In this document: in pieces, positions 1,404-47,813 of the stretch | How the letters are laid out: each line of letters starts with the position of its first letter | Position numbering within the stretch: position 1 is the stretch's first letter | Assembly: GCA_951812955.1 (NCBI GenBank) | Contig: OX638340.1 | Span: 928,001 to 992,000, forward strand | Source: an uncultured Gemmatimonadota bacterium | GTDB lineage: Bacteria; JAAXHH01 | DNA: 64,000 nt | Direction: 5' to 3' | Notes under the pieces: generated by a model | What the model was told of the DNA's origin: nothing | Databases searched by the model: none | Seen by the model: the letters and a program-made list of their open reading frames with translations, nothing else | Program-made: the position numbers and the translations under genes

Positions 1404-2570
1404 ATGTTTGAAGCACTGATCGCCGAAGCAGGCCTTGAGGACATACACGGGAAAGTCGTGGCGGGCGAGCGGCTTTCTGCCGATGACGGGAGAAGGCTGT
1501 ACCGGCACGGTAACCTGCCGGCCGTCGGCTACCTGGCTAATCTCGTTCGCGAGCGCATGCACGGCGAACGGGTCTACTTCGTGCGTAACCAGCACCTGAA
1601 CTACACCAACATCTGCAACAAAAGCTGCCTCTTCTGTTCCTTTTACGCCCTGCCTAAAGATCCGGAAGGATACGTGCTTTCGCCCGACGACATCAGGACG
1701 CGGATGGAGACCTACTCGGACATGCCGATCTCCGAGATCCACATGGTCGGCGGAGTGAACCCCAGGTTGCCCTACGCCTATTACCTGGATATCGTCCGGG
1801 CGATCAAGGAAATGCGGCCTGGCGTGTCGCTCAAGGCCTTCACCATGATCGAGCTTGAGCAGATCCGTAGAATCGCCAAAAAACCCATGGACGAGACCCT
1901 GGCGGACCTGAAAGAGGCCGGGGTGGACGCGCTGCCTGGAGGCGGCGCCGAGGTTTTCAGCGAAAGGGTGCACGAGGAATTGTTCCAGGCCAAATCGGAC
2001 TCCGATAAATGGCTGGAAACCGCGCGCGTAGCACACGAGGTGGGTCTGCCCTCCAACGCGACCATGCTGTACGGCCACGTGGAGCAGACGGAGGAAAAGG
2101 TCTATCACCTCATGAAACTTCGGGAATTGCAGGATGAAACGAACGGGTTCCTGGCCTTCATTCCCCTTTCGTGGCACCCGGAGCGCACGGCTATCGAACA
2201 CCTGCCCGGACCGACGGGTCAGATGGACCTTCGGGAGATCGCGGTCGCACGGCTCATGCTGGACAACGTGCCCCATATCAAGTCGTTCTGGATCATGAAC
2301 ACCCCCGCGGTAACTCAGGTGGGACTGTGGTACGGCGCGGACGACATGGACGGCAGCGTCCTGGAGTACGAAATCACCCGCGATCCCGTTACCGACCGTG
2401 TGCAGGCCCTGACCCATCCCCAGATGCTCGACATGATCAGCGAGTCGGGCCGGCAGCCCGTCGAGCGCGACGCGCTCTACAACGTCGTGGACCGGCCGGA
2501 ATCGATTCGGCCGGCCTATCTGGATCCGGTCGGCGGTGCCACGGCCGACGCCCTCGCGAGCGCAGGATGA
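1404..2570 (+). CDS. mqnE: Radical SAM enzyme of the MqnE/MqnC family (aminofutalosine synthase-like)
   Basis: CNKSCLFCSF radical-SAM cysteine triad at the N-terminus. Its overall architecture matches MqnC/MqnE and it is a paralog of the next gene. Which paralog is MqnE and which is MqnC cannot be settled by eye. Confidence 0.6.
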   Translation: MFEALIAEAGLEDIHGKVVAGERLSADDGRRLYRHGNLPAVGYLANLVRERMHGERVYFVRNQHLNYTNICNKSCLFCSFYALPKDPEGYVLSPDDIRTRMETYSDMPISEIHMVGGVNPRLPYAYYLDIVRAIKEMRPGVSLKAFTMIELEQIRRIAKKPMDETLADLKEAGVDALPGGGAEVFSERVHEELFQAKSDSDKWLETARVAHEVGLPSNATMLYGHVEQTEEKVYHLMKLRELQDETNGFLAFIPLSWHPERTAIEHLPGPTGQMDLREIAVARLMLDNVPHIKSFWIMNTPAVTQVGLWYGADDMDGSVLEYEITRDPVTDRVQALTHPQMLDMISESGRQPVERDALYNVVDRPESIRPAYLDPVGGATADALASAG

Positions 2571-2600
2571 CTCCATGCATCACGAGCGCAGGATGACTTC

Positions 2601-3725
2601 ATGATTGCAGATATCGCAGAAAAGGTCCTGGCCGGCGCCCGCCTGAGCGCCAACGACGGACGCCGTCTGTTCCGGCACCCGAACGTTACAGAACTGGGCA
2701 TGTTGGCCGACCACGTGCGTCGACGGAAGCACCCCGAACCGGTAGTGACATACAATATCGGCCGTAACATCAATTACACCAACGTGTGCTGGGTGCGGTG
2801 CAAGTTTTGCGCTTTCTACCGCCCGCCGGGCGATGGCGAAGGATACACGCTCCCAGACGAGGAGATTTTCGCCAAGGTCGAGGAACTGATCGACGTCGGG
2901 GGTGACGCGGGGGAGTCCTGCGAGATCCTCATGCAGGGCGGACTCAATCCCAGGCTGAAGATCGACTATTATGAAACCCTCTTCTCGGAAATCACCCGTC
3001 GCTATCCCGCGGCCTATCTCCATTCGCTTTCCGTAGCGGAAATCGTTTACCTCGCCCATATCTCCCGGATCTCGGTCGAAGAAGCGCTGGTCCGTCTGCG
3101 CGCGGCTGGATTGAAGTCCCTCCCGGGCGCCGGCGCCGAAATCCTAGACACCGAAGTCCGCGACGCCATCGCCTTCCGTAAGGAAACGGTTCAGGAGTGG
3201 TTGGACGTACACAGCCTGACCCATCGGCTGGGCATGAAATCGACGGCGACCATGATGTTCGGATCGGTGGAAACCGTCGAGCACCGATTGAATCACCTCC
3301 TCCGTGTTCGCGAAGTACAGGACGAGTCGCTCGCACGCCACGACGGTTACTTCACGGCATTTATCGCCTGGAGCTTCCAACCCGAAGGCACCGAACTGCC
3401 CGATACGCGAAAGGCTACGGGATACGATTACCTGCGGACAGTAGCCATTGCCAGGCTTATGTTGGACAACATAGAGAACATCCAGGCTTCCTACGTAACG
3501 CAGGGACCGAAGATCGCGCAGATCGCTCTCGGTTACGGCGTGAACGATTTCGGCAGCACCATGATGGAAGAAAACGTCATCAGCGCCGGCGGCACGAGTT
3601 TCGTGATGCCCACCCCGGAGATCGAGCGGCTGATCGGCGACGCGGGGTTTATTCCGCGCCGGCGCAACACGCGGTATGAATTCGTAGAAAACGGCACTCC
3701 CGCAAATCATGAATCCGCAGTATAG
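2601..3725 (+). CDS. mqnC: Radical SAM cyclic dehypoxanthinyl futalosine synthase-like (MqnC/MqnE family)
   Basis: NINYTNVCWVRCKFCAFY motif. It is the second paralog of a radical-SAM pair in a futalosine-pathway context. Confidence 0.6.
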   Translation: MIADIAEKVLAGARLSANDGRRLFRHPNVTELGMLADHVRRRKHPEPVVTYNIGRNINYTNVCWVRCKFCAFYRPPGDGEGYTLPDEEIFAKVEELIDVGGDAGESCEILMQGGLNPRLKIDYYETLFSEITRRYPAAYLHSLSVAEIVYLAHISRISVEEALVRLRAAGLKSLPGAGAEILDTEVRDAIAFRKETVQEWLDVHSLTHRLGMKSTATMMFGSVETVEHRLNHLLRVREVQDESLARHDGYFTAFIAWSFQPEGTELPDTRKATGYDYLRTVAIARLMLDNIENIQASYVTQGPKIAQIALGYGVNDFGSTMMEENVISAGGTSFVMPTPEIERLIGDAGFIPRRRNTRYEFVENGTPANHESAV

Positions 3726-3859: not shown

Positions 3860-4675
3860 ATGGTCTCTAAAACCCGTCTTAACGCCGTGAGTTTTCTGAA
3901 TACCAGGCCCTTGACCTATGGCCTGGAACGCGGAGGCCGGGATCACGGATTCGAAATCCTCTATGATATCCCCTCCGTATGCGCCAGGCAGGTGAGGACG
4001 GGCGAAGCCTCGGCGGGCGTCATTCCCAGCATCGAATACGCACGCAGTGCGGTACCTTACTCAATCGTTCCCGAGGTATCCATCGCATCCAACGGTCCAG
4101 TCGCCAGCATTCTACTGTTCCACAGGGTGCCGGTCCGGGGCATCCGAAAGGTCGCGATGGATGTGAGTTCCCGGACAGCCGCGGCCCTGGTCCATATCGT
4201 CCTGTATGAGCGGTACGGCCTGGAAATCGAATCGGTCGACCACCCGCCGGACGTATCTGCGATGCTTGAACGGGCGGACGCGGCCCTGGTCATCGGCGAT
4301 CCTGCCCTGGAGAATACGAACCGGCCCGAACCCCGTCTGGACCTGGGGCAGGCATGGCGGGAACTGACCGGGTTGCCTTTTGTGTACGCCTTCTGGGCGG
4401 GGAAGGATGGTGGTCTCACGCCCGGCGAGGTCGAACTGCTGATCGCGTCGAAGAACCAGGGGATGTCCGCCTTCGACGAGATCGCCGAAGTTCACGCGAG
4501 GGACCGCTCACATCCGACTTCGTACTACGCGTCGTACCTCAGCGATAACCTGGTTTACGACCTGGGAGAAGAGGAACAACGAGGACTCATGGAGTTTTAC
4601 GGGATGGCCCATGTTCGCGGCCTGATCCCGTACGTACCGGAATTGCGTTTTTATCCGCGTCAAGGAAGGAGATGA
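3860..4675 (+). CDS. mqnA: Chorismate dehydratase / futalosine synthase MqnA
   Basis: N-terminal VSFLNTRPL motif and a periplasmic-binding-protein-like fold typical of MqnA. Neighbouring mqnC/mqnE genes give cluster context. Confidence 0.72.
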   Translation: MVSKTRLNAVSFLNTRPLTYGLERGGRDHGFEILYDIPSVCARQVRTGEASAGVIPSIEYARSAVPYSIVPEVSIASNGPVASILLFHRVPVRGIRKVAMDVSSRTAAALVHIVLYERYGLEIESVDHPPDVSAMLERADAALVIGDPALENTNRPEPRLDLGQAWRELTGLPFVYAFWAGKDGGLTPGEVELLIASKNQGMSAFDEIAEVHARDRSHPTSYYASYLSDNLVYDLGEEEQRGLMEFYGMAHVRGLIPYVPELRFYPRQGRR

Positions 4676-5637
4676 TCATGGCATCGGCAACAACGGTCGG
4701 CATCGGCACGGGAAGCAACCGCCGCGAGAACGTGCGCGTGGCGGTGGAACGCTCCGCCCCGCAATTGGCCTCCCTCATGGGGGAAGAGGTCATGCTCAAG
4801 CCTAATTTCCTCTCCGGCACCAACCCGGTGGTATGCACCCACCCGGACGCGGTCCGCGGCGTGCTGGACGTCATCATGACCCTGCCGGAGAAACCGCGCC
4901 GGGTACTGATCGCAGAGGGCGGCAATGAATCCGTGCCGGGAGAGTGCTTCCGTCACATGGGATACACCGACATCCCGGACGAATACGACATCCCCATCGA
5001 ACTGGTGGACCTGAACCAGGAGACCAGGTGGCGAAATACCCGGGTGTACATGGTCGACGGCACCTGGACTACGGTCAGGATGCCGCGTACCGTGCTGGAC
5101 TGTCCCTGCGTTATCTCGGTCGCCGTGGCCAAGACCCATGACGGCGCCATGGTTACCCTGGCGCTGAAGAATCTCATCATGGGTACGATATTGAAGAAAG
5201 ACCGAATCAAGGTCCATGGCTATACGACCCACCACGACCGGCGCCATCCTCCGGAAGCCCGGGCGCTCAGCAGGAACCTGATCCGCCTCGCCCGCCACCT
5301 CTACCCCCACTACAGCGTGGTGGACGGTACGGTCGGCATACAGGGTAACGGTCCAGGGGGAACTGACACCGTGCCGCTGGGCCTGGCGGCGGCCGGGGAG
5401 GACACCATCGCCGTGGACGCCGTCATTTCAAAGGCCATGGGATTCGAACCATTGGAGGTGGGAACGGTATTCTACGGGGACGCAATCGGCCTGGGCGTGG
5501 GCGATCTGGAACGCATCTGCGTGAACGGCGGACGGCTGGATGAACTTGCCCTGTCCTTCAAGGGGCATGAATCCATCGATCTGCAGCGTCAGTGGGCTTT
5601 CGAAGGCGCGTGGGAATCGGCGGCGGTCGGCGGTTGA
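4672..5637 (+). CDS. DUF362 domain protein
   Basis: The start codon overlaps the mqnA stop (ATGA), which suggests translational coupling. DUF362-like composition (KPNF..., VVDG, GNGPGGTD). Its stop codon lies inside the first unit of a 22-bp tandem repeat. Confidence 0.55.
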   Translation: MIMASATTVGIGTGSNRRENVRVAVERSAPQLASLMGEEVMLKPNFLSGTNPVVCTHPDAVRGVLDVIMTLPEKPRRVLIAEGGNESVPGECFRHMGYTDIPDEYDIPIELVDLNQETRWRNTRVYMVDGTWTTVRMPRTVLDCPCVISVAVAKTHDGAMVTLALKNLIMGTILKKDRIKVHGYTTHHDRRHPPEARALSRNLIRLARHLYPHYSVVDGTVGIQGNGPGGTDTVPLGLAAAGEDTIAVDAVISKAMGFEPLEVGTVFYGDAIGLGVGDLERICVNGGRLDELALSFKGHESIDLQRQWAFEGAWESAAVGG

Positions 5638-5706
5638 AACGGCGGCGGTCGGCGGTTGAAACGGCGGCGGTCGACGGTTGAAACGGCGGCGGTCGACGGT
5701 TGAAAC
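5619..5706. repeat. Four tandem copies of the 22-bp unit ggcggcggtcg(g/a)cggttgaaac, plus a partial fifth
   Basis: Read directly from the sequence. Each unit repeats the last codons of the DUF362 gene (AAVGG) together with the TGA stop. It lies in a convergent intergenic region. Confidence 0.9.
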
Positions 5707-5737
5707 GGCGGGGACACAGGCATCTACAGGTTTGAGA

Positions 5738-7006
5738 TCAATGCCCCGGCAGGACATCTGGGACGCGCAGCACCTCTTCTTCCGTGTTGTAGAAGTGCGG
5801 TGAAATGCGAATGCCACCCCCGCGGCGGGCGCCGATAATCTGGTGGCTTCGCAACGTTCGATGCAGGTCTTCGGTCTCGTGGACCGGGCTGTCGAAGGTC
5901 ACGATACCCGACCATTCGGACTCGCCCCGTGGACTCAGGACGCGGAAGCCCGAGTCGCACAGGGCTTCGGCCAGTCGGTCGGTCAACTGGCGCAGCCTCT
6001 CCTGTACAACGTCGATACCCACCTCCAGCAGCAGTTCCAGCGAAGCCCCCAGCGCGTGTATGCCCAGCGTGTTGTGGGATCCGCATTCGAAGCGGCGCGC
6101 CGTCGGCGCCGGGGTCGGATCGTAGACGTCGTAGTTGCCCGCATTAGCCACCGAATTCCAACCCACCTCGTAGAGCCTCAACTGCTCGGTCATGTGTGGC
6201 GCGCAGTAGAAGATGCCGATCCCTTCGGGACTCAGAAGCCATTTGTGTCCATCGGCCGTGAGGATGTCGATATTCATCGCATCCACGTCAACCGGAGTCT
6301 GACCGAGGGATTGTATGGCGTCGACGACGAAACAGACGCCCTTTTCCCGGCATAGAGCGCCGATCGCAGCAATGTCGTTGCGGAATCCGTTACCGTACTC
6401 GACGTGGCTGATGGAGACTGCGCGCGTCCTGGAATCGATCCTGTCCGAGATCGCATCCACCGTGAGACGGCCGTCCACGGACTTGACCATCCGCGTTTCC
6501 ACTCCGTCTCGCGAGAGATTAAGCCACGGATATACGTTGGATGGAAATTCGAGGTCGTTCAGGACCACGTTGTCGCCCCTGCGCCAGTCGATGCCGTTGG
6601 CGGCAAAACAGAGCCCTTCCGTGGTATTCTTGACAAATGCGATCTGACTGGGATCGGCGTTGATCAGCCTGGCCGACCGGGACCGGGCGGTCTCGATAGC
6701 CGATTCCCAGTCGCGGTAGTTGGAGGCGGCGTACTCGCTGAAATCCGCTGCATAGGCTCGCACGGCCTCGAAGGCGCGGCCGGGCAACGTGCCGACCGCA
6801 GCGTGGTTCAGGTAGGTACAGTGGTGGACAACAGGAAATTCCTGGCGGATGCGGTCCAGGTTCAATAGAGGCCGTTCCGGTTCTGCGGGAAGGAGCAGGT
6901 TGGTGACTGCCGCCGATTGATGCGAAGCCGGGATCGATTCGAAAGCGGTCCGATCAGAAACTTGCCGCGGCGTCCTCCGTCGAGTCGAAAATATTGAATA
7001 CGGCAT
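5738..7006 (-). CDS. Class V PLP-dependent aminotransferase / cysteine-desulfurase-like; start uncertain, probably internal near 6865-6898
   Basis: ADGHKW PLP-lysine motif and class V fold. The listed ORF 5' end overlaps the upstream STAS gene by 52 nt, so a later CTG or TTG start is likely. Confidence 0.7.
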   Translation of the reverse strand: MPYSIFSTRRRTPRQVSDRTAFESIPASHQSAAVTNLLLPAEPERPLLNLDRIRQEFPVVHHCTYLNHAAVGTLPGRAFEAVRAYAADFSEYAASNYRDWESAIETARSRSARLINADPSQIAFVKNTTEGLCFAANGIDWRRGDNVVLNDLEFPSNVYPWLNLSRDGVETRMVKSVDGRLTVDAISDRIDSRTRAVSISHVEYGNGFRNDIAAIGALCREKGVCFVVDAIQSLGQTPVDVDAMNIDILTADGHKWLLSPEGIGIFYCAPHMTEQLRLYEVGWNSVANAGNYDVYDPTPAPTARRFECGSHNTLGIHALGASLELLLEVGIDVVQERLRQLTDRLAEALCDSGFRVLSPRGESEWSGIVTFDSPVHETEDLHRTLRSHQIIGARRGGGIRISPHFYNTEEEVLRVPDVLPGH

Positions 7007-7286: not shown

Positions 7287-7504
7287 TACACGTCCCCTTC
7301 GTCTGTACGCTGCTGAAGCGAAAACCGGCCTTTTGAATGTGCCATCATTAAACACCTCGTATTCGGTTTCCGCAAGGATAAATTGCGCGGGGGCAGGTAG
7401 ACCCGTCCGGGGCATTGGTGCGGCAGGGACGCGGCAGAGCAGCGGCACGGCAGGGACGCGGTGTGCACGACGGCCGTCCGTCCATTTCCTGCACCTGCCG
7501 ATGG

Positions 7505-9454: not shown

Positions 9455-10744
9455 ATGGCCAGAAAAAAGCAAGCTGCCAGAAAAAAGCAAGCTGAAGGAA
9501 GTAAAAAAGCAGCAGTTAAAAACAATCGAGCCATCGGGATGGCGGACACCATAGACGAATTGAAAAAGACGCTCGGTAGCACCGGTCCGGCCGAGGTGGA
9601 CAACGAGGAATACTGGCGCGCCGTGCGGGCCCAGTTTCCGTACAATGGTTCGATACGATACACCAATAACGGGACGATAGGCATCCTGCCCCACATGGTC
9701 CTGCAGGCCCAGATCGCCACCCTGAAGGAGGCGGAGGTTCAGGATGGGGATACCGGGGGCGTCGCCTATCCCGCTCCCCACGAAGCCCACGGGAAGCTGG
9801 CCGCGCTGATCAACGCGGATCCCAGCGAGGTCGCCATTACGCGGAATTCGACCGAGAGCATGAACATCATCGCCCTCGGACTCGACCTGAAACCGGAAGA
9901 CGAGATCCTGACCACGACGCACGAGCATTACGGCGGCTGGTCCTGCTGGCAGCATCGGCACGCCCTCTTCGGAAACCCGATCCGGAAACTCGACCTATAC
10001 GATCCGCCTGAAGACGAAGACGAGATCGTGGGGCTGATCGAAGAAGCCATTCGGCCGGAAACCCGCGTGCTCAGTTTCTGCCATGTCACCTGCACCACGG
10101 CCTGGCGCCTGCCCGTCAAGAAGATCTGCGCGATGGCCCGCAAGCGGGGGCTTATTACGGTCGTCGACGGCGCCCAGTCTGTGGGCATGATCGCGGTCGA
10201 CGTGAAGGACCTAGGCGGTGATTTCTACGTAAGCAGCACGCACAAATGGCTTTTTACGCCCAAAGGTACGGGCCTGTTGTACGTGGATGAGGCGGCACAG
10301 GACACGATCACGCTGGGTTACTACTCCGGAGGCGGCCGGCTGACGGCGAGGCGTTTCGAGAACAACGCGAGCCAGAGCTACGCGCCGTTCGTGGGGTTCG
10401 CCTTGGCCGTGGATTTCCACAACGCCATCGGTACCAGTCTGATCGAGGACCGCGGCGCGGCCATGGCGAAGTGGCTCAAGACCCGTCTTTCCGATATACC
10501 CGGCGTCCGTGTGTGGACACCCATGAGCCGCGGGCTGTCCGCATCCATGGTTTCCTTCTCCATCGCCGGCATGACCTCCTCCGACGTGGGTACGCCGCTC
10601 AGGGAACGGTACCGTATACACAGCCGCGGCCTGCACGAAGGCGGATATCACGGCGCCCGCATTTCCTGCGCCATGCACAACAGTTATGATGAGATGGAGC
10701 AAGTCGTTAGCGCCGTGCAAGAAATCGCGGCGAACCGGTGCTGA
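9455..10744 (+). CDS. Class V PLP-dependent aminotransferase with a lysine-rich N-terminal extension
   Basis: SSTHKW PLP-lysine motif. A GGAG Shine-Dalgarno lies 9 nt upstream of the ATG at 9455; alternative start at 9539. The N-terminus carries an in-frame 18-bp duplication (ARKKQA x2). Confidence 0.7.
   Translation: MARKKQAARKKQAEGSKKAAVKNNRAIGMADTIDELKKTLGSTGPAEVDNEEYWRAVRAQFPYNGSIRYTNNGTIGILPHMVLQAQIATLKEAEVQDGDTGGVAYPAPHEAHGKLAALINADPSEVAITRNSTESMNIIALGLDLKPEDEILTTTHEHYGGWSCWQHRHALFGNPIRKLDLYDPPEDEDEIVGLIEEAIRPETRVLSFCHVTCTTAWRLPVKKICAMARKRGLITVVDGAQSVGMIAVDVKDLGGDFYVSSTHKWLFTPKGTGLLYVDEAAQDTITLGYYSGGGRLTARRFENNASQSYAPFVGFALAVDFHNAIGTSLIEDRGAAMAKWLKTRLSDIPGVRVWTPMSRGLSASMVSFSIAGMTSSDVGTPLRERYRIHSRGLHEGGYHGARISCAMHNSYDEMEQVVSAVQEIAANRC
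9459..9494 (+). repeat. Perfect 18-bp tandem duplication ccagaaaaaagcaagctg x2 inside coding sequence
   Basis: Read from the sequence. It encodes a duplicated RKKQAA segment. Confidence 0.9.
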
Positions 10745-10808: not shown

Positions 10809-12518
10809 ATGTCCGATACTGTACTTACCATAAAAGCACTGAAGGATCAATTGGGCGAGAAGTTCGCGGAGAACGTCGTCCTTCGGATTAAGCGCGACGG
10901 AGAATACGTTGAATTCACTGGAGGAGAAGCGGCTCGACGTGCCGACGCGCTCGCCGGACTGCTGTCCTCCCTCGGGTTGCAGCCCGGCGACCGGGTCGCG
11001 CTGCTGGCGGACAACCAGCCCGAGTGGGGCGTCACCTACCTGGCCATCGTGGGACACGGGATGACGGCCGTTCCCATCGACCGCCTGTTGAAACCCGGTG
11101 AATACCAGCGGATTCTCGAGGATTCCGGGACCCGGGCGATCGTCGTGTCGGACGCCTTCCGCGATGAGTTCCATTCCATTGCGGGCTCGCTGCCCGAGCT
11201 GAAGCACGTGCTGAGTCTTGAAGAAGTCATGGCCAGCGAGACAGGTGCTCCTGCGCCGGACAACCCGGTCAGCCCGGACGATCTGGCCGTTCTGATCTAT
11301 ACCTCGGGCACTACCGGACAGCCCAAGGGCGTGATGCTTTCCCACCGGAATATCATGTCCAACGTGGTGGCCGCCAGCCAGGTCATCTCCATTTCATCCG
11401 ACGACAGCTTCGTTTCGGTACTCCCCCTTCACCACACTTTCGAATGCACCGCCGGGTTCCTCGCGCCGATATACAACGGCGCCATGGTTTCCTACGTGGG
11501 CAGCCTCAAGTCACGGGACATCGTCGATACGATGAAGGACTCCAAGGCGACCATCATGCTGGCGGTCCCGCTGCTTTACGAGAAGATGTTCCAGGGAATC
11601 ATGCGCAAGGTAGGCTCACAGCCCGCCGTCACGCGGACGGTGTTCAATCTTTTGATGGGCGCGGTGAAACTGGGCGAGAAGTTCAACAAGCGCATGGGGA
11701 CGGCCCTGTTCAGAAGCCTGCGCGACAAGGGCGGACTCGGGACCATCCGGTTCTTCGTGTCCGGCGCCGCCGCGCTTCCGCCTGAAGTGGCCACGGGATT
11801 CGATCGCCTGGGCCTTCGCATCCTGCAGGGTTACGGACTCACGGAAACCTCGCCGGTCGTTTCGGTACATCGCGTGGAGCAACCACCCAAACCCGATTCC
11901 GTCGGACCGCCCCTAAACGGCGTGGAAGTGGAAGTCGTGGACCCGGACGAAACGGGCGTGGGTGAACTCATCGTCCGGGGAGACAACGTGATGCTGGGCT
12001 ATTACAACAACCCGGAGGCCACGGCGGAGGTGCTCAAGGACGGAGCGCTGTACACCGGCGATTCGGGATGGATCGACGAGGAAGGACACCTGCACATTGC
12101 GGGGCGCCTGAAGAACGTGATCGTTACCCGGGCAGGCAAGAACATCTATCCCGAAGAAATCGAGGGGGAACTCGTCCTCAGTCCCTATATCGCCGAGGTG
12201 CTCGTCTTCGGCGCCGAAGTCCCGGACACAGGGGAAGAATACGTACGGGCGGTCGTTGTCCCCGATTTCGAGTACCTGGAAGAGGAAGGCACGCCGAACG
12301 ACGACGAAACCCTGAACACGCTCATAAACAAGGAAGTGCGGGACCGGTGCGGAAACCTTGCGGACTACAAGCGGGTCCGGGAAGTGGAGATCCGCAGGGA
12401 GGAGTTCTCCAAGACCTCGACACGCAAGATCAAGCGGTTTCTCTTCCAATCCGGACAGTCCGCACAGTCCGAGCAGTCCGGACAGGCGGCCCCGTCAGAA
12501 GAAGCTGACGGCCAATAG
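10809..12518 (+). CDS. Long-chain fatty acid-CoA ligase (AMP-dependent synthetase/ligase)
   Basis: YTSGTTGQPKGV AMP-binding motif and full-length FadD-like architecture. The C-terminal QSGQSAQSEQSGQ tail is encoded by a short tandem repeat. Confidence 0.8.
   Translation: MSDTVLTIKALKDQLGEKFAENVVLRIKRDGEYVEFTGGEAARRADALAGLLSSLGLQPGDRVALLADNQPEWGVTYLAIVGHGMTAVPIDRLLKPGEYQRILEDSGTRAIVVSDAFRDEFHSIAGSLPELKHVLSLEEVMASETGAPAPDNPVSPDDLAVLIYTSGTTGQPKGVMLSHRNIMSNVVAASQVISISSDDSFVSVLPLHHTFECTAGFLAPIYNGAMVSYVGSLKSRDIVDTMKDSKATIMLAVPLLYEKMFQGIMRKVGSQPAVTRTVFNLLMGAVKLGEKFNKRMGTALFRSLRDKGGLGTIRFFVSGAAALPPEVATGFDRLGLRILQGYGLTETSPVVSVHRVEQPPKPDSVGPPLNGVEVEVVDPDETGVGELIVRGDNVMLGYYNNPEATAEVLKDGALYTGDSGWIDEEGHLHIAGRLKNVIVTRAGKNIYPEEIEGELVLSPYIAEVLVFGAEVPDTGEEYVRAVVVPDFEYLEEEGTPNDDETLNTLINKEVRDRCGNLADYKRVREVEIRREEFSKTSTRKIKRFLFQSGQSAQSEQSGQAAPSEEADGQ
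12453..12486 (+). repeat. Short tandem repeat (cagtccg-type units) encoding the low-complexity C-terminal tail of the acyl-CoA ligase
   Basis: Read from the sequence: ggacagtccgcacagtccgagcagtccggacag. Confidence 0.8.
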
Positions 12519-17225: not shown

Positions 17226-18737
17226 ATGGACATGGACTATAATGGATTGCAGGTCGCGACGCTCGATGAGTCTCTGAGCGACGCCATTGCCGCGCGCGGT
17301 GGCAAACCTGTGGTATCCAGGGCGGACGACACGGAGAGCCTGGATTCCTTTCTTGAAAACCTGGCACGGGACGACATCGCCGTACTGTTACTGACAGAAC
17401 CTGAACATGTCCGTGCGTTGTTCGGTCGCGCGTCCGCAACAGGGCGCGTCGAGCCCCTGCTGGATGCAGTCAGGCAAATTGCCGTGGGTTCGGCGGGACC
17501 CGCGTGCACGAAAATCTGGAGAAACCACCATCTTTCCGTCGATTTCGAACCTGACGGGACCGGCGGAGAAGCACTCGTGTCGGGCATGGCGCGCCTCGCC
17601 GCATACCTGGTCAACAAGAAACGCACCGCCGTGGACAGTGGGGTGGACACCTCGCACTGGCAACGCATCGACATGCGGTGGCATTTCGAAAGCGATCCCT
17701 ACGGAACCCGGGGCGAGTCTGCCTTCCTCCGGGCGTGCCGCCGGGAACCGACGGAATATACGCCCGTATGGCTGCTGCGTCAGGCGGGCCGATACCAGCG
17801 GGCCTATCGGGAACTGAAATCCGACCTGGATTTCCTGGACATGTGCAAGACCCCGGAACTCACCGCCGAGATCACGTTGATGGCCGTAGAACGCCTGGGG
17901 GTGGACGCCGCCATCCTATTCGCAGACATCCTCCCGCTGCTGCAACCGATGGGCTTCCACCTGGAATACGTCAAGGGACAGGGACCCGTCATTCGCAATC
18001 CGATTCGGTCGGACCGGGCCGTGGATCAACTCGAGGAGGAAGGACCGGAATCCCAGCATTTCGTTTACGAGGCCATCCGCATGGCATTGCCGGCGCTTCC
18101 ACCCCATATCCCGCTCATCGGTTTTTCCGGCGCTCCATTCACCCTGGCCGCCTATGCCATCGAGGGGCAGAGTTCGCGGGACTTCAGGCGCGTCAAGACC
18201 TTCATGTATTCCGAACCGAGGGCCTGGCATGCCTTGATGGCGAAACTGGCGAGAACCGTCACGGCCTACCTCAACGAACAGATCGAGGCGGGCGTTCATG
18301 CCGTACAGTTATTCGACAGCTGGGCAGGCTGCCTTTCGCCCGATGATTACAGGACATTCGTCCTTCCCCATACCGGGTACGTCTTCTCCAATCTGCGCCC
18401 CGGCGTTCCTTCCATACATTTCGGGGTCTGCACCGGTTCTCTGCTCGATTTGATGCGGGAGGCGGGTGGTGAGGTCATCGGGCTGGATTGGCGCGTGGAC
18501 CTGTCCGAAGCATGGCAGGACCTTGAACACGAGGTGGCGGTCCAGGGAAACCTGGATCCCATGGTCCTCTTTTCGTCCCCCGATGTAATCCGCCAGCATG
18601 CGGCGACCGTCCTGCACAAGGCCGGGGGACGTCCCGGACATGTCTTCAACCTGGGTCACGGCATACTGCCCGGCACACCGGAAGACCACGTCATCGCGCT
18701 CGTGGACGCCGTGCATGAATTGGGAATCGCTCGATGA
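17226..18737 (+). CDS. hemE: Uroporphyrinogen decarboxylase HemE with an N-terminal extension of about 160 aa
   Basis: Residues from about 165 onward match HemE (FLRACRREPTEYTPVWLLRQAGRYQ...). The N-terminal 160 aa is an extra domain with weak HemD-like resemblance. Confidence 0.8.
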   Translation: MDMDYNGLQVATLDESLSDAIAARGGKPVVSRADDTESLDSFLENLARDDIAVLLLTEPEHVRALFGRASATGRVEPLLDAVRQIAVGSAGPACTKIWRNHHLSVDFEPDGTGGEALVSGMARLAAYLVNKKRTAVDSGVDTSHWQRIDMRWHFESDPYGTRGESAFLRACRREPTEYTPVWLLRQAGRYQRAYRELKSDLDFLDMCKTPELTAEITLMAVERLGVDAAILFADILPLLQPMGFHLEYVKGQGPVIRNPIRSDRAVDQLEEEGPESQHFVYEAIRMALPALPPHIPLIGFSGAPFTLAAYAIEGQSSRDFRRVKTFMYSEPRAWHALMAKLARTVTAYLNEQIEAGVHAVQLFDSWAGCLSPDDYRTFVLPHTGYVFSNLRPGVPSIHFGVCTGSLLDLMREAGGEVIGLDWRVDLSEAWQDLEHEVAVQGNLDPMVLFSSPDVIRQHAATVLHKAGGRPGHVFNLGHGILPGTPEDHVIALVDAVHELGIAR

Positions 18738-20155
18738 AAGTCGTCGTGGTCGGCGGGGGCATAGCCGGGTTGAGCGCCGCGCACCGGCTGGCGGAAACGA
18801 AACGTCACGACCTGGAAGTGACGCTGCTGGAGCGGACGGACCGATTCGGTGGCACGATACGCACGATCGAGCTCGGCGGATGTCTGGTCGAACTGGGTCC
18901 GGATTCCTTTCTTTCGTCCAAGCCCTGGTTGACGCAACTGGCTGAGCGATTGGGCGTGGCTGATCGGATCATCGCCACTGCAACCACCCATCGCAGGTCC
19001 CACGTCGTCCATCGCGGCAAGCTGCACCCGTTGCCCGACGGGTTCCTGATGATGGCGCCTACCCGCCTCTGGCCCATGGTGACCACTTCGCTTTTTTCGT
19101 GGACGGGCAAGATCCGGTGCGCTTTGGACCTGGTACTGCCACGTTCGCGTGCAACCGGAGACGAGAGTCTGGGCGCGTTCGTCCGCCGGCGTTTCGGCGG
19201 AGAGGTGCTCGAGCGCGTCGTACAACCGCTCATCGGGGGCATCTATGCGGGAGACCCCGATAGGCTCAGCCTGAAGGCCACCATCCCGCGGTTCCTCGAG
19301 ATGGAAACCCGATACCGCAGTGTCATACGGGCCATGGTCGCACAGCGGCGCGCGGCCGCCCGGCGCGGAGGCGGTCCCACGGCCGGCAGCGGCGCGCGCT
19401 ACGGTGAACTGGTCACCTTCGACCATGGCATGAAAACCATCGTGCAGGCGTTGATGGAAAGCCTTCCGGAAGAAACGATGCGCACGCATTCCGACGTCGT
19501 GAGCCTGAGCCGCGAAGGGGACCTCTGGCGTCTGGCATGCGGCGACGGACAGCATATCGATGCGGATGCGGTCATTCTTGCCCTGCCTGCCCGAAAGGCC
19601 GCGGATCTGCTTCGCGGCATCGAAACGGGCCTTCATGATGAACTGTCGGCCATCCCCCACGCGTCGACGGCCGTCCTGAACCTCGTGTACCGGCGTTCGG
19701 ATGTGCCCCATCCCATGGACTGCTTCGGGTTTGTGGTTCCCGCGGTAGAGGAACGGGATATCATCGCCTGCACCTTCAGCAGCGTTAAGTTCCCGAACCG
19801 GGCGCCGGAGGACCACGTGCTGTTGCGCGCTTTCATCGGCGGCGCCCGGCAGCGGCACATGCTCGGTTTCGATGACGGGGAGCTGAACCGGATCGTCCGG
19901 GCGGAGCTGAAAGACCTCATGGGCATCGAAGCCGCTCCTCTTCACACCGCGCTTGCCCGGTACCCGGACGCCATGCCCCAGTACCTCGTCGGCCATAGCC
20001 GGCGCGTTGAGCGGATCGAATCACTGCTCGATCGGTATCCCGGACTTGCGTTGGCAGGCAATGCCTATGGCGGCGTGGGCCTGCCCGATTGCGTGCGTTC
20101 GGGTGAACAGGCAGCGGAGCGGGTACTGGAGATGGAGGAGAACGGCTCCCGTTAG
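18734..20155 (+). CDS. hemY: FAD-dependent protoporphyrinogen/coproporphyrinogen III oxidase (HemY/HemG family)
   Basis: MKVVVVGGGIAGLSAAHRL FAD-binding N-terminus and HemY-like length. A 4-nt ATGA overlap with hemE indicates translational coupling. Confidence 0.75.
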   Translation: MKVVVVGGGIAGLSAAHRLAETKRHDLEVTLLERTDRFGGTIRTIELGGCLVELGPDSFLSSKPWLTQLAERLGVADRIIATATTHRRSHVVHRGKLHPLPDGFLMMAPTRLWPMVTTSLFSWTGKIRCALDLVLPRSRATGDESLGAFVRRRFGGEVLERVVQPLIGGIYAGDPDRLSLKATIPRFLEMETRYRSVIRAMVAQRRAAARRGGGPTAGSGARYGELVTFDHGMKTIVQALMESLPEETMRTHSDVVSLSREGDLWRLACGDGQHIDADAVILALPARKAADLLRGIETGLHDELSAIPHASTAVLNLVYRRSDVPHPMDCFGFVVPAVEERDIIACTFSSVKFPNRAPEDHVLLRAFIGGARQRHMLGFDDGELNRIVRAELKDLMGIEAAPLHTALARYPDAMPQYLVGHSRRVERIESLLDRYPGLALAGNAYGGVGLPDCVRSGEQAAERVLEMEENGSR

Positions 20156-20236
20156 CAGATGGAGAAGGGCGACTTTCGCTAGCAGTTGAAGGAGCACGAC
20201 TCCTGTTCGGAGATGGAGCAGGGCGACTCTTGTTGA
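20129..20236 (+). repeat. Three in-frame tandem copies of the hemY 3' terminus, each ending in a stop codon (EMEENGSR*, QMEKGDFR*, then EMEQGDSC*)
   Basis: Read codon-by-codon from the sequence: TAG at 20153-20155, TAG at 20180-20182 and TGA at 20234-20236 are all in the hemY frame. Confidence 0.85.
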
Positions 20237-20276
20237 CCGACGCCGCCCGCGGGATTCATGCGTCGTGTTCCCGTTC

Positions 20277-20369
20277 TCCGGATGACATTCAATCCGTCCC
20301 CCGGTCCCGCAGCATCGTGTTCCAGCTCGCCGGATGCCATTCAAGCAGTCCCCTGGTCCCGCAGCATCG
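20277..20369 (-). repeat. Duplicated sulP 3' terminus: two imperfect copies of about 40 bp, one encoding the real C-terminus MLRDQGTA* and the other MLRDRGTD* just downstream
   Basis: Read from the sequence on the minus strand. The second copy is frame-shifted relative to sulP. Confidence 0.8.
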
Positions 20370-21969
20370 CAATCGCCGTCTTCCGGGCTTCCTCCATGCT
20401 TCCGACCAGGCGCCAATCGGGGATGCTCCTTACGATGTCGAAGGACTTCAGTGTTTTAGATGCTGCGCCCGAGAGTCCCATCACGATCGTACCGGTTTTC
20501 TGTTCTTCGGCGACCTCAAACAGCCGTTGAATCACAAGGGCCGCACTGTCGTCCACATACTGGGTGTCAGAAAAATCGAAGATGACCACCTGGTGTTCCT
20601 TGATGTCTTCACCAATGGCCATGACCAGTTTCCTTGATGAAGCGATGGTAAAGCTACCCCTGAGAGAGACCAGACCCACCCGAGCTGTATGGGGTTCCAC
20701 ACCGGCCTGGATTCCTTCGGTGGAGAAAAACTCGCGGTCCAACAGGGGCACTGAGACCACGTTGTCGAGCTCCAGGTGTTCCAGCTGCCGGGCGTGGACC
20801 ATCCCGGCGGCGATCAGCCCGATGGCCACTGCCGTGATCAGATCGATGAAAACCGTGAGGCCCAGCGTGAGCGCCATCACCAGCAGATGTTCCCGCTGGA
20901 GACGATGAATCCGGGCGAGTACCCGCCAGTCGATGATGTTCCATCCGACCACAATGAGGATACCGGCCAGGACGGCATGGGGAACCGGCTCGACAAACCT
21001 GCCCAACCCGAGTAGAATCAACAGCAGGAACACGGCGCGCAGAACGCCTGAGACCGGAGTCTGTCCTCCCGAACGGATATTCGCCACGGTACTGACGGTG
21101 GCACCTGATCCAGGAAGACCGCCAAACAGCCCTGCCGCCATGTTGCCTATACCCTGACCCACCAGTTCCCGGTCAGGATTATGGCTTGATCCCGTGAGCG
21201 AATCCGCGATGAGGCAGGCGAGCAGACTGTCCACGGAGCCCAAAAGGGCGATAATCAGCGCGGGTTGGACCGCATACAGCAGAAACGACCAGGAAGGCAA
21301 CTGGAACTGTAGCGCGGGCAGTCCGGCCGGTATCTCTCCAATAACCGGCACGTCACTCAGCCAGAATACGCCCACCATCGTGCCGGCCAGCAAAGCCAGC
21401 AAGGGCGCGGGCACGTACCGGCTCAGCTGCCGAGGCCAGAAAACCGCCAGGACAAGGGTGACCACGGCGATGGCTACTGCGCTGAAGTTCGTGCTGTTCA
21501 ATGCATCGGGAAGGGATCGGATCGCGGCAAGTGCGCCCCCAGGGGCGACAGGCGTGCCGAGAAACGGAAGGGCCTGCATGAGGATGATGATGATGCCGAT
21601 ACCGGACATGAATCCGGATACAACCACATGGGGGGTGTAGGCGATGTATCGGCCCAAATTGGAAATACCCAGCAGCACCTGGATCGCTCCGGCGAGCATG
21701 ACAACGATCAGCGCCTCCGAGAGCGTGCTCACCTGGCTGGTGACGATTAACGCCATCGCGATCGTGACGGATGGCGCAGGACCGGAAACCACCGTCCGCG
21801 TGCCGCCGAACACTGAAGCAAAGAAACCTACCGCGATCGCGCCGTACATGCCCGCGGCCGCACCCATGCCGGACGCAACGCCAAAGGCCAGTGCGAAAGG
21901 CAATGACACCACGGCGGAGGTGAGTCCGCCGGTAAAATCACCTCTGAATGTACCCGGATCATACTTCAA
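20341..21969 (-). CDS. SulP family anion permease with a C-terminal STAS domain
   Basis: Multi-TM SulP core (GIGNMAAGLFGGLPGSGA) and a C-terminal STAS domain. Confidence 0.8.
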   Translation of the reverse strand: MKYDPGTFRGDFTGGLTSAVVSLPFALAFGVASGMGAAAGMYGAIAVGFFASVFGGTRTVVSGPAPSVTIAMALIVTSQVSTLSEALIVVMLAGAIQVLLGISNLGRYIAYTPHVVVSGFMSGIGIIIILMQALPFLGTPVAPGGALAAIRSLPDALNSTNFSAVAIAVVTLVLAVFWPRQLSRYVPAPLLALLAGTMVGVFWLSDVPVIGEIPAGLPALQFQLPSWSFLLYAVQPALIIALLGSVDSLLACLIADSLTGSSHNPDRELVGQGIGNMAAGLFGGLPGSGATVSTVANIRSGGQTPVSGVLRAVFLLLILLGLGRFVEPVPHAVLAGILIVVGWNIIDWRVLARIHRLQREHLLVMALTLGLTVFIDLITAVAIGLIAAGMVHARQLEHLELDNVVSVPLLDREFFSTEGIQAGVEPHTARVGLVSLRGSFTIASSRKLVMAIGEDIKEHQVVIFDFSDTQYVDDSAALVIQRLFEVAEEQKTGTIVMGLSGAASKTLKSFDIVRSIPDWRLVGSMEEARKTAIAMLRDQGTA

Positions 21970-22021
21970 TGACAGGTATCCCTTGCAGATTACGACCGAT
22001 TACACGACGAGACCGCCCATA

Positions 22022-24238: not shown

Positions 24239-25072
24239 TTAGCTGCCGGGTTCCCAGAGTGGAACGTAACCCGCCCGTTCGACGACGGCCTGACCCTCGT
24301 CGCTCAGTATCCAATCGACGAAGGACTTGATGGCGCCACGCGGCGAATGGGCGATGTAGAAATACAGGTACCTGTTCAGAGGATAGGTGCCGTCCCGCAC
24401 GGTGGCGGCCGTGGGAAACACACCGTTGATGCTGCAGGGCACAGTCCCCTCGCCAGATCGGATCCCTCCGTATCCGATCGCGTTGGGCCAGCGCGCCACG
24501 GTCTCGACCACGGCCCTGGAAGTGGGCACGATCCGCGCTTGCGGAGTAAAATCCAACTCCTGAAGCACGAATTGGTCGAAATACACGCGCGTGCCCGAGT
24601 TCGGGGGACGGTTTACCACGAGGATAGGTGCTTGCGGTCCATTAACCTGGCGCCAGTTATCGATCTTTCCCGAGAAAATCGCCCTGACCTGGTCGATGGA
24701 GAGATCGCGAACGGTATTCTCGCGATGGACATATATGCTCAGCGCGTCCCGTGCTGTCAGAATGCTCATGCCGAGCGAACCGCGCTTCTCCAGCAACCGC
24801 TTGACTTCATCGGCAAGCATGGTCCGCGAGGCTGCCCCAATATCGGTTTTCCCGGAGATCAACGACTCGATGCCAAAACGGCTGCTTCCGCTTTCGGTTT
24901 CGATGAACACCCCGGGGTGGGCGTCCATGTATGCGAACGCCCACTGCTGCACCAACCGGTTCATCGTGGTCGACCCGGTGATTTTGAATCGTACGGGTCC
25001 ATCCATCACGGGCGGCGCCGCGATACCGCACGATAAAAGAAACAGGCCCGCTATCCCAATGAGTCGCTTCAT
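24239..25072 (-). CDS. PstS-family periplasmic substrate-binding protein (phosphate/oxyanion-binding-like); an orphan with no adjacent permease or ATPase
   Basis: Signal peptide/lipobox-like N-terminus (LLSCG); GSTTM...SGSSRFGIESL...DIGAASR motifs typical of the PstS family. Confidence 0.62.
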   Translation of the reverse strand: MKRLIGIAGLFLLSCGIAAPPVMDGPVRFKITGSTTMNRLVQQWAFAYMDAHPGVFIETESGSSRFGIESLISGKTDIGAASRTMLADEVKRLLEKRGSLGMSILTARDALSIYVHRENTVRDLSIDQVRAIFSGKIDNWRQVNGPQAPILVVNRPPNSGTRVYFDQFVLQELDFTPQARIVPTSRAVVETVARWPNAIGYGGIRSGEGTVPCSINGVFPTAATVRDGTYPLNRYLYFYIAHSPRGAIKSFVDWILSDEGQAVVERAGYVPLWEPGS

Positions 25073-25092
25073 TTCTCAATCCGCGCCGGCAT

Positions 25093-26751
25093 CTACCGGC
25101 TTTCGATGATGGACCGCAGCCGCGCCACGTTGTACCGTGACTGCGAAACCCATTGCACAGGCCGAAAGGTATCGGCCAGGGCGCCGACGTAGGCGAGCAG
25201 CACCTGGACGTGCTGCCGGACTGCGGCGCGGTTGAACGGCTGTTCGAGATCGTCGAAGGGCGTGTGGTACCGGAGCCGGCCCCAATTAACGAAGATCTCG
25301 ATGCCCGCCTCGCTCGAAAGGTTCTTGAACTGTATCCCTTCCATGAGCAGTATCGCAGGAATGCCTGCCTGGGCAAAAGCGAACTGGTCAGACAGAGCGA
25401 AGGGGTCCAGACCCTGGAACATCAGGGGAATCTGCGAGACCGTCATGTCCAGTTCACCGGCGACTGTTTGCAGCAGTTCTCCCAGGGTGGACAGTTCGGC
25501 GCCGACCCCAATGATATCCCTGAAGGTGTCGACGATGGCGAGTCCATCCACGTTAACCGCCGCCATCGTCCGATGCAGCGGTACGGCCGGGTGGTCCAGG
25601 TAGAATCGGCTGCCGAGCATGCCCTTCTCTTCTCCCGTTACGAAAAGAAAGACCAGAGACCTCCTCGGCGGCTCGGGCATGGCCGCGATCCCGCGGGCTA
25701 TCTCCAGCACACCGGAACACCCCAACGCGTTATCGACCACGCCGTTGTATATGGAATCCGCCAAGACTGGAGGGCCGACTCCCAGGTGGTCGTAATGGGC
25801 CGAGACGATCACGTACTCGTTCCGAAGTATCGGATCGCTGCCCGGCAGGACGCCAATGACATTGGACGAGAAGAACTCGCGCTCCCGGAATCTTCCCACG
25901 AAGCGTAGCTGCGTTTCGAGCGGAAAACTGCGCATTTCGTAATTCAGGTCCATTTCATACACGTCACCCAGACTGTAGGAGGCTCCTTCAAAAAAAACGG
26001 AGGCCCGGGCCGGGTTCACCAGCATGGTCAGGTTCGCGGGCTCACCGTAAAGCAGCGTGACATGCTCGAAGGCGAACATATCCCGCCATTCGCTCCACGT
26101 ACGTCCACCATGTTCCCGGTATGAAGGAATCATGATGCTGCCCACCGCGCCCCTGGACAGGGCCTGGCGCTGCTTCATCCCGGGAATGGAATGGACGGTC
26201 GGTCGTACCCCCTTGAAATAGTCTGTCACTTCCGAGTAGGGTTCGCCCGATAGAAAAACCACGACCGCTCCCTCTACCTGGAGGTCCTGGTAATCGTCGT
26301 AGTCGTATTCCGGCGCGATGATACCATAGCCGACGAACACGATAGGCACCGGCTGGGGTATGATGGTATAGTCCCCAGTGTCGTACAGGAGATAGTCCTG
26401 GACCAATTCGAGTTGATAGACCGTGTCAGCGACAATGACCTGTAACAGGCTACCTGAAAGCGCGTGGCTGCCATGTAGCGGTACACGTTGCAGGTATGAT
26501 CCGTCTTCCGCACCTGGCCTGATTTTCAGGTGCCGCAGTTGGTCTGCAAGGTATTGCGCCGCGGTATCAGCACCCGCGGTGCCCACGGCCCTTCCCATCA
26601 ACCGATCATTGCCCAGGTACTCCGTATGGGACCATATCCGTTCGATGGATACCGATTCCATTGCCATCCGCACCCTGGGGGATAGGGCCTGCTGCGCATG
26701 GCAGGGCGCAACAAGGAGCAATTGCAGCAGCATCAGTGCGTAACGCGGCAT
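25093..26751 (-). CDS. M28 family secreted aminopeptidase with a PA domain
   Basis: Signal peptide; FLFVTGEEKGMLGSRFY M28 metal-binding region. Confidence 0.7.
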   Translation of the reverse strand: MPRYALMLLQLLLVAPCHAQQALSPRVRMAMESVSIERIWSHTEYLGNDRLMGRAVGTAGADTAAQYLADQLRHLKIRPGAEDGSYLQRVPLHGSHALSGSLLQVIVADTVYQLELVQDYLLYDTGDYTIIPQPVPIVFVGYGIIAPEYDYDDYQDLQVEGAVVVFLSGEPYSEVTDYFKGVRPTVHSIPGMKQRQALSRGAVGSIMIPSYREHGGRTWSEWRDMFAFEHVTLLYGEPANLTMLVNPARASVFFEGASYSLGDVYEMDLNYEMRSFPLETQLRFVGRFREREFFSSNVIGVLPGSDPILRNEYVIVSAHYDHLGVGPPVLADSIYNGVVDNALGCSGVLEIARGIAAMPEPPRRSLVFLFVTGEEKGMLGSRFYLDHPAVPLHRTMAAVNVDGLAIVDTFRDIIGVGAELSTLGELLQTVAGELDMTVSQIPLMFQGLDPFALSDQFAFAQAGIPAILLMEGIQFKNLSSEAGIEIFVNWGRLRYHTPFDDLEQPFNRAAVRQHVQVLLAYVGALADTFRPVQWVSQSRYNVARLRSIIESR

Positions 26752-26994
26752 AAGACCGGTTTCTCGTTTGTGGCTGCGGGTGGCGACCCACTGCCGGTCT
26801 GTTCATCGTAACCTGTTCTTTAGGAAGCGATCCTTCAGCATGCTTCGATCCGATGGCTAGTTCAGCAGGTGGAAAACCAAACCAGGACCACGTATCCTCG
26901 TGATTCAAAATAACGCAAGAACGGGAGCCTGACAATATGCGCGTGGACCGTATGGTTTATTTTCCAGTGGCGGTCGTCTACGCCAATCTGAGAG

Positions 26995-28311: not shown

Positions 28312-28379
28312 CGGGCGGAGCGACTGCGATCGAAGCCGGGTGACGAGCGGAGCACCATCGAACGAAGCGAGGAGTTCCC

Positions 28380-32252: not shown

Positions 32253-32394
32253 GCCCCGCATGAGGGACGCGTTGAGGGACGCGCGCGGGACGAGTGAGGG
32301 ATACGAACGCTAAAACGCGGTATCTTCGCGGACCAATCGGTTTTCAATCGGCCACATTATCTAAAGATCGACATGCAACCATAGGAGAAAGCAC

Positions 32395-34993: not shown

Positions 34994-35161
34994 GTGCCGG
35001 ATAAGAAGAAATCCCTGCTGTTGCGAATCAACACCGAGCTCTGGAATGACCTCAATGCCTGGGCGAAGGATGAATTGCGTAGCGTGAACGCGCAGATCGA
35101 GTATATTCTTCGGGAGGAAGTGCACAGACGGAAGAAACGACGGCGACGCGAGGAAGATTGA
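34994..35161 (+). CDS. 55-aa ribbon-helix-helix (Arc/MetJ-like) DNA-binding protein with a basic C-terminal tail
   Basis: GTG start. SLLLRINTELWNDLNAWAKDELRSVNAQIEYILREEV matches the Arc-type RHH pattern. Not in the ORF track (<60 aa). Confidence 0.45.
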   Translation: MPDKKKSLLLRINTELWNDLNAWAKDELRSVNAQIEYILREEVHRRKKRRRREED

Positions 35162-35241: not shown

Positions 35242-35289
35242 GGCGGACCGGCGGACCGGCGGACCGGCGGACCGGCGGACCGGCGAACC
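35242..35289. repeat. Octamer microsatellite (ggcggacc) x5 plus a variant copy
   Basis: Read from the sequence, between the RHH gene and the next PhyH gene. Confidence 0.9.
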
Positions 35290-35329
35290 GGCAAATCAGC
35301 GGTCGCGTATTTGATCCGGAGACATTGAA

Positions 35330-36190: not shown

Positions 36191-36313
36191 CAATCCGGCC
36201 GCGCAGACTTCGGCCGCGCAGACTCAGGCCGCCGAGGCCCTTTCTGGCGGCATGGCCACCCAATCCGTCCTCATCACCCAACCCGGCCCCATCGTCTTAT
36301 ACCGGTATTTCCT

Positions 36314-47790: not shown

Positions 47791-47813
47791 TTTCATCGGA
47801 CGTCGGCTGATTT
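47776..47813 (+). repeat. Tandem duplication (period 20) of the stop-containing 3' end of the small protein: tcggacg(c/t)cggctgattt x2
   Basis: Read from the sequence. Confidence 0.85.

Follow-up and report, generated by a model that had tools for sequence, protein, structure and literature searches.

Short tandem duplications over gene ends in a 64-kb stretch of an uncultured Gemmatimonadota genome: probable variable tandem repeats of an ordinary kind

Why should one gene after another end inside a short tandem repeat that copies its own final codons and stop? The question is raised by a DUF362 gene in a stretch of 64,000 nucleotides from an uncultured Gemmatimonadota bacterium (contig OX638340.1, positions 928,001 to 992,000; hereafter the window, in whose coordinates positions are given unless a related locus is named), the stop codon of which lies within a 22-bp array. 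An earlier note on this DNA had described several such gene ends and had regarded them as a consistent pattern peculiar to this genome. The pattern is recurrent, real and unusually dense. The arrays are probably ordinary bacterial minisatellites (variable-number tandem repeats, VNTRs) which arose by microhomology-mediated duplication and slippage and were retained where harmless, with no process aimed at stop codons.

The DUF362 gene end and its array

The features at this site are as follows.

4672-5637, plus strand: DUF362 gene (Pfam PF04015, E=1e-37), with its TGA stop at 5635-5637
5614-5711, plus strand: 22-bp tandem array of 4.5 copies over that stop (Tandem Repeats Finder, TRF)
5738-6865, minus strand: convergent class-V aminotransferase gene (gene call, Pfam PF00266)

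The four TGA-bearing units of 22 bp noticed earlier were recovered when TRF was run on the window (match rate 97%, score 175). In register, the array reads GAATCGGCGGCGGTCGGCGGTT, then three near-identical copies of GAAACGGCGGCGGTCG[G/A]CGGTT and a partial GAAACGGCGG, every full copy carrying the final DUF362 codons plus TGA. The protein ends ...WESAAVGG-TGA within the first unit. TGA occurs at 5635, 5657, 5679 and 5701, and as 22 cannot be divided by 3 the three later copies fall in frames +1, +2 and 0. Most of the 100-nt convergent spacer is taken up by the array, and the aminotransferase stop (5738) lies 27 nt past it.

The window's genome is compact and of Latescibacterota type. The site was compared among close relatives, all of them metagenome-assembled genomes under the label Latescibacterota or Gemmatimonadetes; the genome names suggest sponge or coral hosts for several of them. 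Copy number was 4.5 in the window, 3 in loci L082, L083 and L084, about 2 (diverged) in L086 and L087, and 1 in L081, in accordance with the variation that the earlier note had expected of related genomes. The DUF362 protein of the single-copy L081 is 99% identical to that of the window. L082, L083 and L084, which are independent assemblies, share an identical DUF362 protein and the same 3-copy allele. The spacer measures 100 nt in the window compared to 38 nt in relatives. In an alignment of 17 homologues, DUF362 proteins at 93-99% identity were found to have near-identical tails (...WE[ST]AAVG[G/A/T]*, the asterisk marking a stop) regardless of repeat number, one of them being a residue shorter. 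As the tails are alike across copy numbers, the ancestral element is the gene end, and the copies downstream are derived from it.

Recurrence and copy-number variation of the arrays

Genes in the window were called with a simple caller of the author's own (53 genes, 92% coding). Arrays were accepted from TRF at a score of at least 50, and a scan for exact direct repeats of at least 11 nt at offsets of 4-60 was added; the two together gave a wider set of 22 repeat loci in the window. Nine of the 53 genes end within a local tandem duplication, four of which (at 2557, 28299, 32224 and 44069) had not been noticed earlier. In addition to DUF362 these are:

2557-2598, plus strand: 26-bp duplication of an operon gene junction, comprising the stop of gene 1404-2570 and the start context of gene 2601-3725 (exact-repeat scan)
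20130-20229, plus strand: diverged in-frame 27-bp array of 3.7 copies over the TAG stop of a HemY-type amine oxidase gene, 18734-20155 (TRF)
20263-20369, minus strand: 52-bp array of 2.1 copies over the stop (20341-20343) of sulP, 20341-21969 (TRF, Pfam)
28299-28368, plus strand: 32-bp array of 2.2 copies over the TGA of an AlaDH/PNT-alpha gene, 27154-28311, in an operon spacer (TRF)
32224-32301, plus strand: 11-bp array of 7 copies (or 22-bp of 3.5) over the TAA of a PhyH-family gene, 31371-32252 (TRF)
44069-44111, plus strand: 20-nt exact repeat at offset 23 over the TGA of gene 41383-44082 (exact-repeat scan)
47776-47813, plus strand: 20-bp array of 1.9 copies over the TGA of a 106-aa coiled-coil gene, 47470-47790 (TRF)
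54804-54835, plus strand: 12-nt exact repeat at offset 20 over the TGA of a 171-aa gene, 54295-54810 (exact-repeat scan)

The window holds 14 TRF arrays, compared to 0.38 in second-order Markov simulations, and 18 loci with exact short direct repeats where 1.6 would be expected; the repeated ends are thus, as had been argued, no single accident. A period of 20-22 bp, which had been put forward as characteristic, did not hold: array periods in the window were 8, 9, 11, 15, 18, 20, 22, 23, 26, 27, 32, 33 and 52 bp. At stops, array and gene overlap by anything between 7 and 29 nt, and a fixed register is lacking.

Most of the individual gene ends described earlier were recovered. The hemY end is followed by in-frame copies with their stops kept (...EMEENGSR*QMEKGDFR*...EMEQGDSC*), the sulP end MLRDQGTA* has a second copy MLRDRGTD*, and the period of 20 at the coiled-coil gene was confirmed. 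That at the 171-aa gene stood in part: a 12-mer is indeed repeated at offset 20, but this is the weakest example, lying below TRF detection even at a score of 30, found by the exact-repeat scan alone and absent from locus L093. Duplicated ends leave the protein intact for the DUF362, AlaDH and coiled-coil genes, and at PhyH and HemY, where the array begins further upstream, a change in copy number touches only the last few residues of the tail (PhyH, ...RWESPREGRARKA* in the window vs ...RWESPA* in L001; HemY, ...LEMEENGSR* vs ...LEIEKGDS*).

Side observations were made at three of these sites. Just 3' of hemY, L009 carries an unrelated 17-bp array of 5 copies (CCCGGCGGTCAGACGGA, L009 11460-11544), which looks like an independent repeat birth in that spacer. 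The sulP gene is absent from L001 and L002, though each retains one 52-bp unit with the sulP 3' end (compare window 20168-22008, L001 11436-11582 and L002 about 2560-2620); this suggests that sulP was deleted in both lineages, leaving behind a relic of its repeated end. The junction at 2557 joins two radical-SAM (CofH_C-type) genes, with a spacer of 30 nt in the window compared to 5 nt in the unduplicated L082, and a different repeat (ACGCAGGA) is found at this junction in L086.

The remaining arrays are:

7420-7461: remnant 11-bp repeat (three copies) in a hypervariable spacer (TRF and exact-repeat scan)
L082 12533-12727: 48-bp array of 3.6 copies in the corresponding spacer
L083 9928-10081: 48-bp array of 2.6 copies in the corresponding spacer
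9458-9494, plus strand: perfect 18-bp duplication (2.1 copies) in a divergent region, or in the N-terminus of an aminotransferase gene (TRF)
12450-12485, plus strand: in-frame 9-bp repeat (4 copies) coding for the (QSG/QSA) tail of an AMP-binding ligase (TRF)
35242-35302: 8-bp (GGCGGACC) spacer array of 6.4 copies (TRF)
36194-36293: two spacer arrays, 15 bp in 2.6 copies and 18 bp in 2.1 (TRF)
47819-47863: 18-bp spacer array of 2.5 copies, just 3' of the 47776 array (TRF)
54890-54991: 33-bp array of 3.1 copies in a convergent spacer, 4 nt short of the stop of an M20 peptidase gene (54995-56320, minus strand) (TRF)
58997-59088, minus strand: in-frame 9-bp repeat (10.3 copies) coding for the (DQA)n C-terminal tail of LpxC-FabZ (TRF)

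The tandem arrays seen within genes of the window all have a period of 9 bp and form in-frame parts of low-complexity tails, and the repeat tails of the acyl-CoA ligase and LpxC-FabZ that had been pointed out were confirmed as such. The arrays at 36194 begin 4 nt past the stop of a PhyH gene (35330-36190). The spacer at 7420 separates a STAS-domain gene from a pyruvate-oxidoreductase-type gene, and the LpxC-FabZ stop region overlaps the start of a downstream lpxA-like hexapeptide transferase gene (58178-58990).

Copy number was compared most closely with L001, a chromosome-level genome of 3.9 Mb which has about 95% nucleotide identity to the window and is syntenic with positions 8683-34436. 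It differed at all five arrays compared (window vs L001): 2 vs 1 at the AlaDH end, where the operon spacer is 68 nt in the window and 36 nt in relatives; two units more in the window at the PhyH end and about two more at the HemY end; 2 vs 1 at 9458; and 4 vs 2 at 12450, a tail which is two units shorter in both L001 and L082. Elsewhere, the 47776 array has 2 copies in the window and 3 in L093, and the 54890 array has 3 in L093 and about 1.6 in L092. L082 and L083, which are conspecific, come from different samples and have the same DUF362 protein, differ by one 48-bp unit at the 7420-type spacer. In flank-anchored comparisons with relatives, the length differences of most non-coding arrays were at or near whole units. 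Repeats within genes were invariant among relatives (the LpxC-FabZ tail, for example, is of equal length in the window and L093), except for two in-frame units in the 12450 tail. The arrays are thus genuine variable-number tandem repeats.

They resemble bacterial VNTRs or minisatellites, such as those used as loci for multiple-locus VNTR analysis (MLVA), in having head-to-tail units of 8-52 bp which are specific to their locus, lie mostly in intergenic DNA or in-frame tails and vary in copy number between close strains and species; the 14 arrays of the window are head-to-tail and exceed what composition predicts, and copy number differs between relatives at the same locus. They are unlike such loci in their density (2.2 arrays per 10 kb vs 0.7 in GC-matched controls) and in the overlap with stops in 9 of 53 genes. 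Mycobacterial interspersed repetitive units (MIRUs) are also tandem repeats in operon spacers beside stop and start codons. The duplication at 2557-2604 makes a mini-open reading frame (mini-ORF) of nine codons, MHHERRMTS*, which starts 4 nt past the upstream TGA and whose own TGA overlaps the downstream ATG (ATGA). By analogy, this resembles the coupling arrangement of MIRUs (PMC12548453) and might likewise preserve translational coupling. MIRUs differ in being dispersed and apparently mobile with a shared unit, whereas here each array derives from its own local sequence.

An assembly or polishing artefact is hardly credible as the source of the arrays. Tandem repeats are known to cause assembly errors, but the same 3-copy DUF362 allele was obtained from three independent assemblies of different samples, the copies of older arrays have diverged (68-87% identity), most arrays (32-107 bp) are below the length of a sequencing read, and differences from relatives are for most arrays at or near whole units.

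Placement of repeats at gene boundaries

Is the stop codon itself special? In the wider set, repeats were found at 9 of 53 stops and at none of 51 starts in the window. Expected and observed numbers were also obtained under several placement nulls, for the window alone and for the window plus a clade set of 19 related loci (382 kb together):

TRF arrays, window, uniform placement: stops 0.8 expected, 6 seen; starts 0.8 expected, 0 seen
TRF arrays, window, must touch non-coding DNA: stops 4.7 expected, 6 seen; starts 4.6 expected, 0 seen
TRF arrays, window plus 19 loci, must touch non-coding DNA: stops 18.9 expected, 19 seen; starts 20.8 expected, 8 seen (p about 0.0005)
Wider set, window, must touch non-coding DNA: stops 6.2 expected, 9 seen (p=0.12); starts 6.0 expected, 0 seen
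Wider set, window, coding overlap capped at 30 nt: stops 3.9 expected, 9 seen (p=0.005); starts 3.7 expected, 0 seen (p=0.014)

The enrichment at stop codons implied by the earlier note therefore stands over uniform placement, which is rejected at stops, but the count is near geometric expectation once contact with non-coding DNA is required, and that null is not rejected. With coding overlap limited to 30 nt, the total for either boundary (9 vs 7.6 expected) is in line and the stop-over-start asymmetry alone departs. The clearest deviations are depletion in genes and at start codons. Stops exceeded starts in repeats (wider set) by 16 vs 9 in related loci and by 13 vs 4 in unrelated phyla, giving 38 vs 13 when pooled (p=0.0006). 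The claim that the pattern is idiosyncratic to this genome hence holds for its density, with 17% of stops in a repeat, but not for the asymmetry, which unrelated genomes share.

The fraction of bases covered by repeats was as follows:

Window: convergent spacers 0.51, co-directional 0.09, divergent 0.03, coding 0.0045
Related loci: convergent 0.14, co-directional 0.058, divergent 0.045, coding 0.0040
Other phyla: convergent 0.023, co-directional 0.014, divergent 0.007, coding 0.0036

Coverage thus followed the same order in all three groups (convergent, then co-directional, then divergent spacers, all far above coding), with coding DNA at about 0.4% throughout. A survey of 5374 prokaryotic genomes found tandem repeats to be enriched just beyond start and stop codons (PMC12418385). 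The present data agree with it in that repeats are rare in coding sequence and commoner just outside; they differ in that starts are strongly avoided relative to stops, and duplications that include the stop were not singled out in that survey. The association with stops alone does not call for a new mechanism.

What is specific to the lineage is the high repeat density of its intergenic spacers:

Arrays per 10 kb: window 2.19, clade 1.57, GC-matched controls 0.74
Non-coding arrays per kb of intergenic DNA: window 2.34, clade 1.29, GC-matched controls 0.26
Stops within a local repeat: window 17%, clade (19 loci) 5.1%, other phyla 2.0%

The rate at stops in the window is 3.3 times that of the clade (p=0.004) and also exceeds that of other phyla (p=9e-6). 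Over the same stretch, six arrays were counted in the window and one in its 95%-identical sister L001; E. coli K-12 had 1 array in 50 kb.

Origin of the arrays

We infer both the duplication mechanism and the role of selection as a filter. During replication, a short segment with a little microhomology (a few bases) on either side would be tandemly duplicated, and the resulting array would gain or lose copies through slipped-strand mispairing or unequal recombination. Selection would then purge arrays from the regions of start codons and ribosome binding and also from gene bodies, except for in-frame arrays in disordered tails, while arrays in spacers and over stop codons would be tolerated, the latter because the first copy retains the native C-terminus and stop and the protein is unchanged whatever the period. 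A duplication over a start would place an additional initiation site ahead of the real one, with plausibly harmful effect. Through such selective survival gene ends would appear preferred without any stop-directed process.

In two single-copy alleles a short direct repeat recurs at a distance of exactly one unit: GAATCGGC, present twice at 22 nt in the L081 DUF362 allele, and CGAAGC, on both flanks of the single-copy AlaDH end of L001 at 32 nt. The arrays are laid out arm-unit-arm. Microhomology-mediated tandem duplication, described in S. pombe and reported across life (bioRxiv 10.64898/2026.02.28.708716; PMC8639346), and named in the first of these as the main way in which tandem repeats form, has the same direct repeats of 6-8 nt one unit apart, the same [arm][unit][arm] layout and gains and losses among relatives. 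It differs in that here the direction of change is read from comparisons and the arms are possibly remnants of collapsed arrays.

Several points weigh against this account. The microhomology arms of single-copy alleles could just as well be a partial copy left behind when an array collapsed; with roughly two diverged copies already in L086 and L087, the DUF362 array is possibly an old one that collapsed in L081. The excess at stops with coding overlap limited to 30 nt may reflect some real preference for the stop side. A filter leaves the high density in the window's genome unexplained, at 3.3 times the clade rate and six arrays against one in the sister. Start calls are imperfect, and repeats near starts (such as that at 9458) are possibly mislabelled. 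The related loci are partly non-independent, several arrays being common to a sub-clade at about 91% identity, and the window samples 64 kb of its genome.

The density could alternatively mean that short tandem duplications arise unusually often in this symbiont-type lineage, and in the window's genome especially, through a peculiarity of repair or replication (impaired flap processing or mismatch repair could be candidates) or through a process linked to transcription termination; we consider this rather doubtful. If it were true, much of the intergenic DNA would have been made by duplicating gene ends and junctions, and the density, if due to how the lineage repairs or replicates its DNA, would be a real if modest finding on the mutational regimes of symbionts. 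A related proposal is that a process tied to gene 3' ends makes the duplications, for example through replication forks which stall or switch template at transcription termination or at collisions of convergent transcription, the bias to the stop side then being mutational and not selective. The richness of convergent spacers (51% covered in the window, 14% in the clade), the nine stops against no starts, the excess at stops under the 30-nt null and the occurrence of unrelated arrays in the same junctions and spacers across lineages (L086 at 2557, L009 past hemY) all agree with it. Nevertheless it is unlikely: divergent and co-directional spacers have arrays too, as do coding tails (in frame), the variable overlap of 7 to 29 nt shows no fixed register, the DUF362 site, which was examined for them, showed neither hairpin nor terminator, and the gradient from convergent to divergent spacers is also present in unrelated genomes of low density, as a selection filter predicts.

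The arrays might instead be functional, as tunable 3' untranslated regions or spacers with a part in insulating convergent genes, ending transcription, binding a protein or supplying back-up stops. Several convergent spacers are largely filled by arrays, some arrays persist at orthologous sites in the sub-clade of about 91% identity, and a motif containing CGGWCCG recurs in non-orthologous arrays. Set against these are the fast turnover (most arrays are absent from L001), the unrelatedness of units between loci, and the later TGAs of the 22-bp period, which are mostly out of frame and led to the rejection of back-up stops. No terminator-like site was found in 5400-6000, the RNA fold at the DUF362 array was not significant (z-score -2.06), and no Rfam covariance model matched at the gathering threshold anywhere in the window. 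A function for the arrays is accordingly improbable, and one as a structured or dispersed element is not supported.

More specific candidates were also rejected. An intrinsic terminator or a palindrome of the repetitive extragenic palindrome (REP) type at the DUF362 array would require a G+C-rich hairpin (for a terminator, with a T-run), and neither a terminator-like site nor a significant fold was found there. A dispersed element family is contradicted by the units, each of which had no match beyond its own locus and the orthologue of that locus in relatives. C-rich tracts for Rho utilisation did not fit the unit compositions inspected, the coding strand being G-rich at some arrays and C-rich at others. 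A phase-variable contingency locus was dismissed as the DUF362, AlaDH and coiled-coil C-termini are constant whatever the copy number.

Ordinary duplication, slippage and selective retention therefore remain the preferred account. The array loci would be usable as strain-typing markers for this uncultured lineage, and they illustrate the birth of intergenic spacers from gene ends and junctions in a compact genome. They also call for caution in annotation, since duplicated gene ends yield decoy stop codons and mini-ORFs.

Some minor observations concern the units and the surrounding DNA. A GGCGGWCCG(G) core, with CGGWCCG, is common to the non-orthologous arrays at 35242-35302 and 47819-47863 and to arrays in relatives (L008 767-837; L015 4964-5011; L016 4729-4822; L009 about 6500). 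CGGWCCG was rejected as a special motif: its 52 matches in the window exceed the 30.6 expected, but two arrays account for 8 of them. A 55-aa ORF (34994-35161) which lacks a Pfam match and whose C-terminus is highly basic (..HRRKKRRRREED*) is located in the long spacer that precedes the GGCGGACC array. A segment of 2.6 kb (24318-26903), which carries a 552-aa gene on the minus strand (25093-26751), is missing from the otherwise syntenic L001. In a hand count over L001-L020, periods divisible by 3 made up 27 of 45 non-coding arrays of the clade (about 17 of 35 with orthologues collapsed), which is above one third, and a period of 18 bp was particularly frequent; an origin of such arrays in coding sequence or in unannotated coding tails is possible.

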